Assembly (NCBI GenBank): GCA_000004695.1
Contig: CM000152.2
Span: 3,744,001 to 3,808,000 of the forward strand
DNA from: Dictyostelium discoideum
Taxonomy: Eukaryota
Direction: 5' to 3'
Length of the DNA stretch: 64,000 nt
In this document: one piece after another, positions 3,630 to 63,933 of the stretch
Layout: each line of letters begins with the position of its first letter
How positions within the stretch are numbered: the first letter of the stretch is position 1
The notes under the pieces: generated by a model
The model's input: the letters and a program-made list of their open reading frames with translations, nothing else
Databases searched by the model: none
Told to the model about the DNA's origin: nothing
Made by a program: the position numbers and the translations under genes

Positions 3630-6581
3630 TTATTTTGATTTTATTATTTTCATTTTTAAAGTATTTTTATCTTTTTCTGAGAAATCAATAAAATCTATTA
3701 ATAGATTTGATAATTCAAAATTTAATGAATTTATTGATTTGACAACTATATCATTTAATAATTTTGAACTAAATAATGATGATTGATTTGATTTAGTTCG
3801 AATTTTTAATAAATATTTACTATTATGATCGGATGATATTATGTTTTTAAATATTTGAGTGTAACCTTTTTTAGAAGCAATACAAAGACAATTATAAAGA
3901 TAATTGATTGTATTATTATTTAGATTTTCAATAAAATAATTGATAAATAATTCAAGGTAATAACTTGACGATATACCATACAAACAATGTTCTTTTGTAA
4001 AAATTGAAAAATAATCAGGATTAAATAAAACTTCTGGTAATTTATCAAAAAGATAAATAATATCATCAACTCTATCTAGTCTGTAAAGACAAACTAATAA
4101 TATTCTAATTGAAACTGTAAAATTGAATGATTCTGTTTGGCCAATAATGAAAAATCCAACATCTTCACCTTTTTTAGCTGATAAAAGATTTGTTGCGGTT
4201 GCTGTTGTTCCTGTTGTGGTTGTTGTTGTGGTAGTTGTTGTGGTTGTCAATGTGGTGGTGAGTACAATTTCACTATTAATTTCTTCAAAGTTTTTATTAT
4301 CAGTTTTTAAATTAATTACTTTTAACTTTGTTTCAATAGATTCTTTTGAAATATTATTAAATAAAAACTTGATAAAAGTTAACATTTTACTTTTATATCG
4401 ATTAAAACTAGATTCTAAAATTGGAGAAACATATAATGGATGTTTTAATTGTGCATTTGATAAAAAGTGAATAATTGAATTTTCTTTGGAGTCTTCCGTA
4501 TTCGAATCAATTAGCCCTTTGAAAATAAAATTAAAATTAAAATTAATAGTGCCACGAAAATCAAAATAGTATAAGAGTGGTTTTGCAATTGTTCTATTTA
4601 ATCGATCTAAAAATTTTGAACTATCAAACCAACGGAAAATATCAAAATTGCATCTGTTTCCAATACTACCCGTTAAATATTCATAATGTTCAATAAGTCC
4701 TAATTGAATTCGTTTCCAAGTTTGATTTTGATCATTAAATAATAAACATTCATCTCTGTAATTTTGAAAATAAAAGTCTAATATTTCTTTTTTATCGATA
4801 AAATGACAATAATCGCTTATTAAACTACCAATAACTGGGAAGGTAGTTGTTTCTGGTGTTTGATTGAGTTGTTGTTGCTTTAATATTTTTAAAAAATAAT
4901 CAATTAACTCTATATCATTACTTGAAAATACTGCTTCAAAAAATATATGAAGATCTTTTAATTTAAAAGTTTTCACATATTTATTATTTAAAACATTTGA
5001 TATTAATTCGAATTTTTCATTTTTTTCAATTTTTATATCTTTAAATATTCTTTGAAAAAATAATTTATGATCAAAATTACTACCATTCCATTTTTTGATA
5101 ACATGCTCATACATTTTATCTACCCTTTCTTTTTTAAAATATAAATAATAAAGTAATGGTTTTCTAAAAATAGTTTTATTTGCTGAATTAATTGTGAAAT
5201 AAATAAATAAATAAATTGATTTATAATATTTTTTAATAATTTCTTTTAAATTAATATTATTGTTGTTATTGTTAGTGCTGCTGTAATTACTTTCTGTAGA
5301 TATTATTGTGAGATTGGTTGTTTTTAATGATGTTGAGGTAGAGGTAGAGGTTGAGGTATATGTAGATGTAGAGGTTGAGGTTGAGGTTGAGGTTGAGGTT
5401 GGAGTGGTATGATTTAATAATTTTTTAATTGTTGAATTTAATTGATAATTTGTAAATTGTGATGTTTGTATTTCATTTAATTCTAATATTTTTTGATTTA
5501 ATTTTTCATAATACTTTTTATTAGGATGTATTTTAATTATTCCTTGTTTTTCTAGTTGTTCTTGTTGTTCTTGTAAGTTTGTTGATTCTATTAATCTTTT
5601 ATAAGATTTTATAAGTTTTTTAAATTTATTATCGAATGAAAGAAGTGTTGAAAAATTGATGCTAATAGTTGATAATAATGTATGTGATGTTGGAATACTA
5701 TTAATTGATTTTAAGTAATTGTAAATTTTTAATTTATCATATGTAGTATTACCAAAGAATGATGGATCAATATGAATTTTTATAGCTTTTTTAATAACTT
5801 CTGAATCGATTTTAAAAAATTTAATAAATTGATCTAGTGCTGTGTAATTTACATTTTCAATCATTCTTTGAATCCATATATCAATATTTCCATCGAATTG
5901 AATAGTTGAAGGTAGTTGTGTTGATGGTGAAGTTGATGTAGATGAATATCTTGAAAATAATAAATTATAAAATGATCTTGTTTTTTCATCGTTTTTTTTA
6001 AATTTATTAATAATGTCTATAATATTGCTTTCATTTCTTATTATTTGATGATTATAGCTTTTTATATTATCTATAATTATTTCCATTGAATTACTTTTTC
6101 CATTTAAAAGGATTTCATCACAACCTATTAAATCATAATAACTGTATTGTTTACTTTTAAAATTTGAAAATATGTGTTTAAATATTACTATATTTCTAAA
6201 TATTTTCCAAAAATAAATTTCAACTGGTTCAACATCTTTAAATGTTAATATATATTGTTTTTCTTGTGGTTGTGGTTGTTGTTGTTCTTTTTTTTTTTCT
6301 ACTTGTCGATTGGTTTCATTATTTGTAAGATTGTTTTTTACTTTTTTTGATAAAAAATAACCTTCAATTCTATTATAGACTAATTGTTTTTTACCATTAC
6401 TTGCTAAACCTAATGATTTTGCAATTATTTGTAATTCTCTGTAATTTGTTGAACCACTTTCAAAATCTTTTTTAAACTTTTTATATGTTAATAAACCATT
6501 ATCAATGCCATCACTATCATCATTATTTTTTTCATGATGTTCATTAATAGTATCGATTTCTTTTCTTTTATTACTTATCAT
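3630..6581 (-). CDS. SAP-domain protein, tandem paralog 2 (983 aa)
   Basis: The 983-aa ORF starts [12 protein letters not shown] like copy 1. It carries the same SAP-like block [29 protein letters not shown]. Its T/S-rich and T-rich low-complexity stretches are expanded relative to copy 1. Confidence 0.7.
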
Positions 6582-33863: not shown

Positions 33864-35318
33864 ATGAATAGAACACATCATTTATTTAGATTAAGAGGAT
33901 CCTCAAGATCATTTTGTTCATCCACTCCAGTTACAAAACCAAATAGTAAGTAATTTAATATTTATATATATATTTTTTTATAGCTAATTCAAATATATAC
34001 ACACACACACACACATAAACACAAGAATAATAATTTACAATTTATTTTTTATTAATTTAATAATTCTTAAAAAAAAATAAAAAAATAAACAGAATTATTT
34101 GGTAGTTTATTTCCAAATCCAACACCAATAAATCCAATGAAAGAACAAATTTATTCATTTGAAGCAATTGAAAATGGAACATCATCACCAAAGGGTACAA
34201 CATTTAAAAATTCATTAGATCAACCATTTTCACAAAACGTTTTAAACAAAAGTTTTTTATACGATGAAAATGGTAAAATTACAATTGAAGAAGGTGAACA
34301 GATGATGAAAGAATATGATGAGGACGACGATTATGGTGAATCTGTCGACGATCTCCAATCTGAAAAATTCATTAACAATATTAGAGAACAAAGTAAAAAC
34401 CAATCATTTGAATTATTTCAATATAAAAAAGAAACAAAAGCTTCAAAAGATATGGCATACATCAATTTCCTTGAAAAGCATGAATTAAATCCAAACCTTT
34501 TATGCTTTCTAATTCAATCAGCAACATCAGAGTCTGATAAAATTTTTGAAACCTTTAAAAAAAGTTTATCCTTTGAAATCGCTGAATCAATTTGTGTCCA
34601 AATGCCTGATAATTCCTTAGCTGGTCGTACAGTATCAACCGCTATTTCTTTAATTCCAAAAGAAAATTCAAATATTGACCCACAATCAGTTTATAAATCA
34701 CTTTCAACATTTGGTATAACCTTAAATGTAAGTATTAATTATTAAAAAAAAAGGAAAAAAAAAAAAAAAAAAAATTGTTATTAATTTTTTTTATTTTTAA
34801 ATTTTTTATTTTAGGGTTTAAGATTAAAAGTTTTAAATGCATCAAGTTTAAAGACAATATCATTATTTGGTTTAGATAAAAATTTACCTGAGGAATATTT
34901 TAGAGATTATTTTTCAGAATCATTTGATCCAAATATGAAAGATCCAAAATTTTGTAGAATTACATTCTCATCAAAAGTTTATAAACCACATTTGATCGGT
35001 AAAGAATCATCACACTCTGGTGTTGCACATATTACATTTGACAGTCATTTAGTTGCCATGAGAGCAATAAAAGCATTGTCCAATTTACCAATTTCTAGTT
35101 GGGTGGGTATTAGTAGATACGCTTACACTGAAGGTTCTGCCGCTGCAGATTTAATCACAATTCTTGAAAGAAGGAGACATAGACAAATGGATGATATTAA
35201 ATTAATGAAAGATATTATCGATTTAAAAGCAAAAGTTAAAGAGTTGGAAAATGAAGTAAAGAAACATGAAGATTCAAAGAAAAAGGGTTCATCCAAAAGA
35301 TATTTAACCAATATTTAA
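33864..35318 (+). CDS. three-exon gene, hypothetical protein with a presequence-like N-terminus
   Basis: The CDS is join(33864..33945, 34093..34727, 34815..35318). Exon 1 reads MNRTHHLFRLRGSSRSFCSSTPVTKPN and ends in a GTAAGT donor. The acceptor aaacag at 34091/34092 restores the frame into ...LFGSLFPNPTPINPMKEQIYSF. A second GTAAGT donor follows ...GITLN, and the tttag acceptor at 34813/34814 leads into GLRLKVLNASSLK...MKDPKFCRITFS. The C-terminus is coiled-coil-like (KLMKDIIDLKAKVKELENEVKKHEDSKKK). Confidence 0.6.
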
Positions 35319-37924: not shown

Positions 37925-39504
<1,580 letters not shown>

Positions 39505-61306: not shown

Positions 61307-62260
<954 letters not shown>

Positions 62261-62622
62261 ATATTTCTTATTAAATAAATAATTTTATTTCTATTATGTA
62301 TTTATTGTTTTGAAATGTAAATGTTTATTTTTTTTTTTTTTTTTTTTTTTTTTTTATCTCTTTTTATTTATTCCTTTTTCTACAATTCTTTTTTTTTTTC
62401 TCTTTTTGTTTATTTTCCTTTATTTTTTTTCTAGCTCCACAATACTATTAAAAAAGGAATCATATTATTACTATTATTATTATTACTGCTATTAAAAAAG
62501 GGAATCATTATAATTTATGCTTTTTTGAAAAATGAAAATTTTGAAGCAGAAAAATGATATTTCTTTTTTTTTTTTTTTTTTTTTAAAAAAAATTCATTTT
62601 TTTTATTTTTTTTCATTTTATT

Positions 62623-62629
62623 CCCATAA
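62623..62629 (+). promoter_or_regulatory. DUSE box (tTCCCATAAt) upstream of the U3 snoRNA gene
   Basis: It matches the [A/T]CCCA[C/T]AA element found about 60 bp upstream of Dictyostelium snRNA and class-I RNA genes. It lies about 50 bp upstream of the inferred U3 5' end. Confidence 0.6.
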
Positions 62630-62679
62630 TTTATTTAGTTTTAAAATATAAATAAAAAAAAAGTTTTTTTATTTATTCA

Positions 62680-62895
62680 AAGTTATGACCAAACTCTTAG
62701 GATCATTTCTAGAGTATCGTCTATTAAAATTATTCATCAATAATTTTTCCTCTTTCACAGCTAGGATGATGATATACACTCACTACACGAAAGCGTGAAA
62801 CCGTTATTATCGAATGATTCATTTATTTTTTATTAACATTGATGACCGTCTAATTCAGGGATGAATTGGTTGTGTGGTGGGATTCGTACTGGCTC
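62680..62895 (+). ncRNA. U3: U3 small nucleolar RNA (box A, C', B, C present)
   Basis: Box A region: cttAGGATCATTTCTAGAGTATCGTC (compare yeast TAGGATCATTTCTATAGGAATCGTC and human GGATCATTTCTATAGTGTG). Box C': aggATGATGAtat. Box B: gaaAGCGTGAAacc (compare GAGCGTGAAG). Box C: attGATGACCGTC (compare TGATGATCGT). The 3' end is ggctc followed by T6. The length is about 215 nt, and the region is GC-richer than the surrounding AT desert. Confidence 0.75.
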
Positions 62896-62901
62896 TTTTT
62901 T
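62896..62901 (+). terminator. oligo(T) run at the 3' end of the U3 gene
   Basis: tttttt lies immediately after ggctc. Confidence 0.5.
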
Positions 62902-63027
62902 AATTAATTTAATGAAAAAAATATCCAATTAAAAATACCTATTATATTGAATTGTTTAACTAAATGTTAAAAACTACAAATTATTAATAAAGCCATAAAT
63001 TATTATTTTTTGTTTATTTCTAAAGTA

Positions 63028-63933
63028 TTAGAATTTATTTAATTGTTTTATTAGTTTACTTTTTTTTACAGTTTTTTTTAAAAACTTGTTTTCATAATTT
63101 TTAATTAAATAATTTGTTTTTTTGATTAATTTTGATTTATTTATTGGTTGAGTTTGGATTAATTCAATTATTAAAATACCAGATGCACCAGGATGACTAA
63201 AACATAAACCATTATAATCTAAAATGAAATCAGTTATATCTATTGGTTTTTTAATTGATAATTGTTCAAAAGGTGAATGAGATTTCACTTTTTTTTCATT
63301 TTCATGATTTTCAAAATAGTAATCATTTATTGATAGATCATAATCAGTTGAATCATATTTGAAATCATTTTCAGTCTGTTTATAATAGAATTTCAATTGA
63401 ATTGATATTCTTCTTGATTGATCTAGTATTATTTTCCATGTGTTTTCACTTAATATTAAAACATAACTACATTTTTGATTATATTCAATAGTGAATAATC
63501 TTTTTATTCCTCTATTGAATGATGTTTTATTTTCATTTATTTCATTTATCATTTCAATTTGTTGTTTTGTTTGATCTTCATATAAAGGTGAATAGTTATT
63601 CTCTAGAAGTGGTGACGGTGGTGATGATGGTGGTGGTGATGTACAAGGTGACTGTGTTAATTTTACTGATGATAGTGTTAATAAATTAGTTTGATTTGAT
63701 TGCAACTGAAGTATTTTTTGATATTGTTTTTGTGGGGGAGATTTTATTTGTTGGTTGTTAAATTCAAGGTGATTATTTATAATAAATTGTTGATTTTTTG
63801 AATCTTGTAACATTTTTAATAATTTTCTTCTAAGAAATAATTCTTGCATTGAAAGTGATTGTTGTTGTAATGGAAGTGATTGTTGTTCGCTCTCTGATTT
63901 AACACTTTCTTTTAAATTATTTTTTTCAAACAT
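63028..63933 (-). CDS. hypothetical protein (301 aa), Q/S/P-rich N-terminal half
   Basis: A single ORF starts MFEKNNLKESVKSESEQQSLPLQQQSL. It contains SPPSPLLENNYSPLYEDQ and a C-terminal region NGLCFSHPGASGILIIELIQTQP. No match is recognised. Confidence 0.45.
   Translation of the reverse strand: MFEKNNLKESVKSESEQQSLPLQQQSLSMQELFLRRKLLKMLQDSKNQQFIINNHLEFNNQQIKSPPQKQYQKILQLQSNQTNLLTLSSVKLTQSPCTSPPPSSPPSPLLENNYSPLYEDQTKQQIEMINEINENKTSFNRGIKRLFTIEYNQKCSYVLILSENTWKIILDQSRRISIQLKFYYKQTENDFKYDSTDYDLSINDYYFENHENEKKVKSHSPFEQLSIKKPIDITDFILDYNGLCFSHPGASGILIIELIQTQPINKSKLIKKTNYLIKNYENKFLKKTVKKSKLIKQLNKF

Follow-up and report, generated by a model that had tools for sequence, protein, structure and literature searches.

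The U3 snoRNA helps to cut out 18S ribosomal RNA. Plant U3 genes are transcribed by Pol III from a USE and a TATA element and end in an oligo-T terminator, and non-standard kink-turns with a second pair other than G.A, e.g. the ribosomal Kt-23 variants, have reportedly been described by Lilley's group. In Dictyostelium discoideum, the U3 RNA was first described as D2 (Wise & Weiner 1980; GenBank V00190), is 210 nt long (V00190 nt 62-271; PMC2784804) and, going by the title of the first of these papers, comes from a multigene family whose members are dispersed. In Rfam the family is represented by RF00012 (clan CL00100), with human SNORD3 and yeast snR17. Many ncRNA genes of D. discoideum carry the upstream sequence element of Dictyostelium (DUSE), with the consensus [AT]CCCA[AT]AA, about 63 bp upstream (PMC3188802), and this element, at about 60 nt from the start, is needed for the expression of Class I RNAs across the Dictyostelia and has been reported upstream of Pol II and Pol III genes alike (PMC7919456).

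Here, we describe a U3 locus in a window of 64,000 nucleotides (the whole stretch of D. discoideum DNA that was analysed). Judging from a covariance model, an upstream element and comparison with related genomes, the segment 62685-62893/4 of the forward strand is very probably a functional and independently transcribed copy of the D. discoideum U3 snoRNA gene. The gene call is correct and the kind of gene has been known since 1980; as the sequence has probably been public since then, any novelty lies in noticing and testing a variant box D and not in the gene. The gene call as such is of value for annotation only, in that a member of the D2/U3 family can be assigned to chromosome 3, where it lies between DDB_G0280865 and the neighbouring gene upstream.

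With the RF00012 covariance model the segment scores 88.8 bits (E = 4.3e-18), the gathering score being 34, and the untruncated alignment takes in the model from end to end, positions 1-219 of 219 (cmscan). When all 4227 Rfam families were scanned at their curated thresholds, U3 was the sole match in the 64 kb, and any Rfam-based annotation would find the locus. The original prediction had called a U3 snoRNA gene here and had proposed RF00012 as the comparison to make; the full-length match, together with conservation at the same chromosomal position, bears out the call, all the motifs that it quoted are present on the forward strand, and its 3' boundary, which it had itself doubted, agrees with the model end at 62893. 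The model gives 209 nt compared with the 210 nt published for D2, and the mature RNA probably ends at 62894, which would give the published length. Two neighbouring ORFs are exact or near-exact matches to the D. discoideum AX4 proteins DDB_G0280859 and DDB_G0280865. U3 sits between two protein-coding genes, in a gap of 768 bp that separates an ORF ending at 62260 (+) from DDB_G0280865, which ends at 63028 (-), and it is therefore free-standing and not intronic. The G+C content is 34% in the U3 segment, 17% in the 2 kb upstream flank and about 20% in the window overall. No tRNA genes were found in the window. The coordinates of the gene and its elements are collected in Table 1.

Table 1 Positions of the U3 gene, its upstream element and its structural elements in the window, with the basis of each assignment
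Feature	Positions	Strand	Basis or remark
DUSE (Dictyostelium upstream sequence element) TCCCATAA, putative promoter element	62622..62629	+	motif scan and conservation
U3 snoRNA (D2 RNA) coding region	62685..62893	+	covariance-model limits, 209 nt
5' domain, putatively pairing with pre-rRNA	62685..62721	+	maximum posterior probability in cmscan alignment; invariant in all orthologues
GAC box	62687-62689	+	motif position
Box A' region	62691-62702	+	motif position
Box A	62703-62721	+	motif position
Hinge between 5' and 3' domains	62722..62759	+	cmscan and fold; predicted small hairpin 62726-62747
Terminal stem, 5' strand GCUAG	62760..62764	+	pairs with 62889-62893; cmscan structure line and minimum-free-energy fold
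Box C' GAUGAUGA (DNA GATGATGA)	62765..62772	+	cmscan; invariant in orthologues
Box B AGCGUGAA (DNA AGCGTGAA)	62792..62799	+	cmscan; invariant in orthologues
Box C UGAUGACCGUC (DNA TGATGACCGTC)	62840..62850	+	cmscan; invariant in orthologues
Box D position	62882..62888	+	reads AUUCGUA, family consensus auUCUGA (cmscan alignment)
Terminal stem, 3' strand CUGGC	62889..62893	+	cmscan and fold
T6 run, putative role in 3' end formation	62896..62901	+	two bases past model end

The RNA resembles the Rfam family in the order of its GAC, A', A, C', B and C elements and in its 5' hairpin, terminal stem and long central helix, and it is presumed to serve, like the family, in the processing of 18S rRNA within the 90S pre-ribosome. 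It differs from the family in having UCGUA for UCUGA and in its last small hairpin, which is shortened (seen as gaps in the alignment), while the promoter is a dictyostelid DUSE as opposed to the metazoan PSE/DSE or the TATA-type promoter of yeast. The 5' domain, where U3 RNAs carry a GAC box, A' and A in the form ...GGAUCAUUUCU.AG..., reads AUGACCAAACUCUUAGGAUCAUUUCUAGAGUAUCGUC, and the conserved 5' stretch AGGATCATTTCTAGAGTATCGTC lies at 62700-62722 (+). U3 RNAs further have a box B similar to AGCGUGAA opposite the UGAUGA of box C across a hairpin, and in this RNA AGCGUGAA itself is combined with UGAUGACCGU (62840-62849), with a variable hairpin between the two. Box C' is brought to the 3' end by the terminal stem GCUAG/CUGGC. 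Folded alone, the 209 nt give -46.8 kcal/mol (z = -2.1), and this thermodynamic fold recovers the Rfam architecture, including the 5' hairpin holding box A', the hinge hairpin and the terminal stem, and also a 12-bp central helix (CUCACUACACGA/UUGUGUGGUGGG), the hairpin flanked by boxes B and C, and the last small hairpin. By the curated criterion and with five of the six box elements, the RNA is a member of the U3 family; its sixth element, box D, is in position but permuted in sequence.

There is complementarity between the motif AGGAUCA and UGAUCCU, the universal 18S 5' motif. If the RNA works like U3 in general, its GAC, A' and A boxes and its hinge would form base pairs in the 90S pre-ribosome, both with the 5' external transcribed spacer and with the small-subunit rRNA at its 5' end, the function of the hinge being presumably that of pairing with the 5' ETS, and such pairing would chaperone the early cleavages that release the 18S (17S) rRNA. 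In the 3' two-thirds of the RNA, the long stem brings box B next to box C, and box C' next to the box D position; Snu13 and Rrp9/U3-55K would bind to B/C, Snu13, Nop56, Nop58 and fibrillarin would bind to C'/D, and a stable snoRNP would be the outcome of both.

In the original prediction no canonical CUGA box D could be located, and CTGA is indeed absent from 62685-62913 (0 occurrences). The 3' end reads GGGATTCGTACTGGCTC at 62879-62895 (+), followed by the T6 run, and at the homologous position there is an element of the right length with CGUA in place of CUGA, i.e. with G and U swapped, so that UCGUA agrees with UCUGA in 3/5 letters and the dinucleotide UA replaces GA. We also considered the AUGA at 62862-62865 as an alternative box D and rejected it, as it is located in the loop and stem of the last hairpin and not beside the terminal stem. 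An independent D. discoideum assembly, a divergent strain of the species, six independent Logan read assemblies and D. citrinum all have the same UCGUA letters. The independent assembly (GCA_054883475) is identical to the window over 400 bp including the flanks, so that an assembly error can be dismissed as the cause of the unusual 3' end. Among the modification-guide C/D snoRNAs of D. discoideum, all 47 of 47 have CUGA or, rarely, AUGA, with GA always kept (PMC8817022), so that U3 is the exception within its own organism.

When the element is read in the usual kink-turn register, a 3-nt bulge (GAU) arises on the strand of box C', then come G.A, A opposite U (normally A.G) and U opposite G (normally U.U), followed by G-C and A-U. 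As predicted from this register, the first sheared G.A next to the terminal stem can still form, and the second sheared pair would be lost. The repeat in box C', GAUGAUGA, allows a second register, in which the first AUGA base-pairs with UCGU beside a single G.A mismatch; the energy model prefers this AUGA:UCGU register, and introducing CUGA in silico makes the local duplex less stable by 2 kcal/mol. Kink-turns of the Kt-23 type are like the predicted Dictyostelium C'/D kink-turn in keeping the first sheared G.A by the canonical stem and in having A opposite U at the second position, whereas the Dictyostelium C'/D may instead adopt a plain helix of AUGA:UCGU. The stability of U3 depends on box D in other organisms, and the second sheared A.G pair is considered essential for Snu13 binding and snoRNA stability. 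According to a tentative reading, which we consider quite unlikely, U3 in the lineage of D. discoideum and D. citrinum does without a canonical box D, the second sheared A.G pair being absent from its C'/D element (GAUGAUGA opposite UCGUA). If it were true for all expressed copies, Nop58 and fibrillarin would assemble on a non-standard kink-turn ('complex' or A-U-containing), or else the C'/D half would be built differently, e.g. with B/C or an assembly factor providing the nucleation. The CGUA box D can be regarded as a natural experiment on the deviation tolerated by the U3 C'/D kink-turn, in an organism that is genetically tractable.

For the comparison between relatives, orthologous loci were found by searching with DDB_G0280865, which identified a divergent D. 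discoideum strain (81% identity), D. citrinum (65%) and D. firmibasis. Both the divergent strain and D. citrinum have a U3 at the same place and in the same orientation beside the DDB_G0280865 orthologue, with scores of 89.1 and 92.6 bits, respectively. According to the three-way alignment, the D. citrinum RNA is 96.7% identical to that of the window and the DUSE plus 2 nt on each side is 100% identical, compared with 75% in the spacer between DUSE and RNA start, 51% upstream of the DUSE and 41% downstream of the gene. The seven substitutions in the D. citrinum RNA are confined to the internal loop that follows box C' and to the apical variable hairpin that separates boxes B and C (7/7), and none falls in the boxes, the terminal stem or the 12-bp central helix (0/7). 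A conserved RNA and DUSE amid diverged flanks indicates, by sequence comparison, purifying selection on both the gene and its promoter element and argues against a decaying pseudogene. Conservation of the CGUA letters themselves is weak evidence, as the species are close relatives with 7 changes in 209 nt. In the D. firmibasis counterpart of this locus (CM069765.1 7014420-7024754), the orthologue of the neighbour is present and no U3 was found within 4 kb on either side; on this sampling, the position of the U3 copy is not conserved beyond the pair of D. discoideum and D. citrinum.

The DUSE lies 63 nt (start-to-start) or 55 bp (end-to-start) upstream of the RNA. A DUSE promoter element had been predicted from the outset, and the prediction is supported by the published spacing of about 63 bp and by the conservation of 12/12 positions in D. 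citrinum amid diverging surroundings; the motif itself was correctly recognised, but its start had been put one base late (62623, not 62622) and its distance at about 50 bp, where either 55 bp or 63 nt applies. The same 12 positions (the octamer plus 2 nt on each side) are also identical in the divergent D. discoideum strain, and the spacing agrees within 1 nt in both orthologues, with sequence further upstream being 51-71% identical. In the whole window the octamer is not enriched (4 matches, 7.6 expected), and the case for the DUSE therefore rests on position and conservation; by arithmetic from the window scan, the chance of finding it on the correct strand within 3 nt of -63 is roughly 4e-4. 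Further DUSE-like octamers at 34678, 35535 and 44689 are no more than chance predicts, have nothing RNA-like downstream and were set aside as chance matches. With the motif on the gene's strand at 63 nt, and with element and distance conserved in relatives, the gene belongs, on the grounds of its motif, spacing and conservation, to the dictyostelid ncRNA genes of the DUSE type, and the element most likely directs transcription from a start 63 nt downstream, at the A of AUGACC. It has in common with the DUSE-driven ncRNAs of Dictyostelia, i.e. spliceosomal snRNAs and Class I RNAs (Hinas et al. 2006, PMC3188802, PMC7919456), the same octamer at about 60-63 nt upstream and its conservation between species, but its product is U3 snoRNA and there is no TGTG box between DUSE and start. 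The locus represents a clean example of a DUSE at exactly -63 that is conserved into D. citrinum.

Within the 64-kb window, nhmmer with the U3 segment found no second U3 copy or fragment. The six Logan read assemblies (k = 31) that carry DDB_G0280865 all end at window position 62876, 18 nt inside the U3 3' end, while their other ends vary. A common break of this kind means that the 30-mer 62876-62905, comprising the CGUA and 12 nt of 3' flank, may recur elsewhere in a different context, as a branch in the de Bruijn graph. Going by this behaviour of the assembler, there may be further U3 copies in the genome that have the same CGUA box D and also some 12 nt of the 3' flank (TCTTTTTTAATT) in common with this one. 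Broader searches were also made. A 15-mer scan of metagenome contigs returned at least 120 stretches, and nhmmer with the U3 of the window found no U3 among the matches listed; the pattern is too short, and these are chance matches. A 19-mer scan of prokaryotic genome contigs and viral contigs gave 0 matches, and a full-text literature search for D2 with sequence fragments returned unrelated papers only.

Two other explanations of the locus have to be weighed against a functional gene. That the U3 match arose by chance in A+T-rich DNA, with no RNA gene at the locus, draws on nothing but the low complexity of the surrounding sequence, and its probability is negligible in view of an E-value of 4e-18 over the full-length model, a G+C content twice that of the flanks and a sharp boundary of conservation; the covariance-model match, this boundary and the orthologues at the same position refute it. 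More can be said for a non-functional or weakly expressed U3 variant, i.e. a pseudogene, the real U3 being made from copies with CUGA. The box D reads CGUA and not CUGA (...GGGAUUCGUACUGGCU), which could be thought a defect in an organism where 47/47 guide C/D snoRNAs have CUGA or AUGA (PMC8817022), U3 forms a multigene family in D. discoideum according to the title of Wise & Weiner (1980), and the copy is missing from the matching D. firmibasis locus and so is dispensable at that position. A pseudogene would, however, hardly be expected to keep an intact DUSE at the exact spacing and perfectly conserved, and an RNA that is 96.7% identical in D. citrinum next to flanks of 41-51%, with its substitutions in loops, bears the signature of purifying selection. 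The shared break of the six read assemblies at 62876, suggesting as it does other copies with the same box D, also speaks against CUGA-bearing copies as the real source, and we regard a pseudogene as very unlikely and a functional U3 gene as the reading to be preferred.

With regard to the polymerase, transcription of this gene by Pol II, with separate 3' processing, appears probable. Transcription by Pol III as for plant U3, with the DUSE as the upstream element and the T6 run as the terminator, is in our assessment somewhat unlikely. Shared with plant U3 genes are an upstream element at a fixed distance and, immediately behind the gene, a T run, while the upstream motif differs and T5 and T6 occur inside the Dictyostelium RNA. 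It is said that Wise & Weiner found D2 to carry a trimethylguanosine cap (1980/1981). Such a cap marks Pol II products, and on D2 it would point away from Pol III. The T run starts 2-3 nt past the RNA end and is kept in all three orthologues (T7 in the divergent D. discoideum strain, CTCTTTTT in D. citrinum), and a run of at least 6 T starts within 3 nt of only 1.8% of all positions in the window, which is 80% A+T; these points favour Pol III, as does the fact that T runs behind Class I RNA genes have been interpreted as terminators for Pol III (PMC7919456). Against this, T runs are very frequent in intergenic DNA of about 83% A+T, and a polymerase stopping at T6 would truncate the RNA, which has a T5 at 62744-62748 and a T6 at 62826-62831 (an internal T6 is found in the D. 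citrinum RNA as well). As the RNA itself contains T5 and T6, a T6 alone cannot stop the polymerase that makes U3, and the first long T run is not the one at the RNA 3' end, T5 and T6 both preceding 62896-62901. The original prediction had named an oligo(T) terminator; the T6 run is there, but its role as a terminator is not established, with equally long T runs inside the RNA, and it is probably not a simple Pol III terminator. The DUSE, for its part, is compatible with Pol III and not decisive, because reports place it upstream of Pol II genes as well as Pol III genes. The internal T6 at 62826-62831, in the apical hairpin, is polymorphic: the divergent strain of D. discoideum has TTCTTT at this place and D. 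citrinum has CTTTTTT, and the length of the run is therefore not under selection to stay short.

The locus also touches on the annotation of its neighbours. In the divergent strain (GCA_054859355), the protein P0007, orthologue of DDB_G0280865, has a gene model of 1878 bp (locus 4001-5878) for a product of 332 aa, and the span of this model covers the U3 gene on the opposite strand (locus 5295-5503); the model of P0007 has probably been drawn too long because the RNA gene is not annotated. The 5' half of U3 can itself be read as an ATG-initiated ORF of 37 codons, 62685-62798 (+), with the translation MTKLLGSFLEYRLLKLFINNFSSFTARMMIYTHYTKA. Neither this 37-aa ORF nor the 30- and 36-aa ORFs on the minus strand inside the U3 gene correspond to a called gene on record, and the 37-codon ORF is almost certainly spurious as a gene.

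Elsewhere in the window, positions 37991-38955 hold an imperfect TTG trinucleotide tract of roughly 965 bp (about 315 units, 67% matches), which accounts for the strong G-C skew of +0.6 at 38-40 kb. Read as CAA on the minus strand, the tract is probably a very long coding tract of the poly-Gln/Asn type that is typical of Dictyostelium, and it is followed by tandem arrays of 6 bp and 21 bp at 39063-39373. Closer to the U3 gene, between the upstream gene and the DUSE, a short direct repeat, AAAAAAGGAATCAT...AAAAAAGGGAATCAT, with its units about 45 bp apart, is present at 62451-62512 and may belong to the 3' UTR of the upstream gene.
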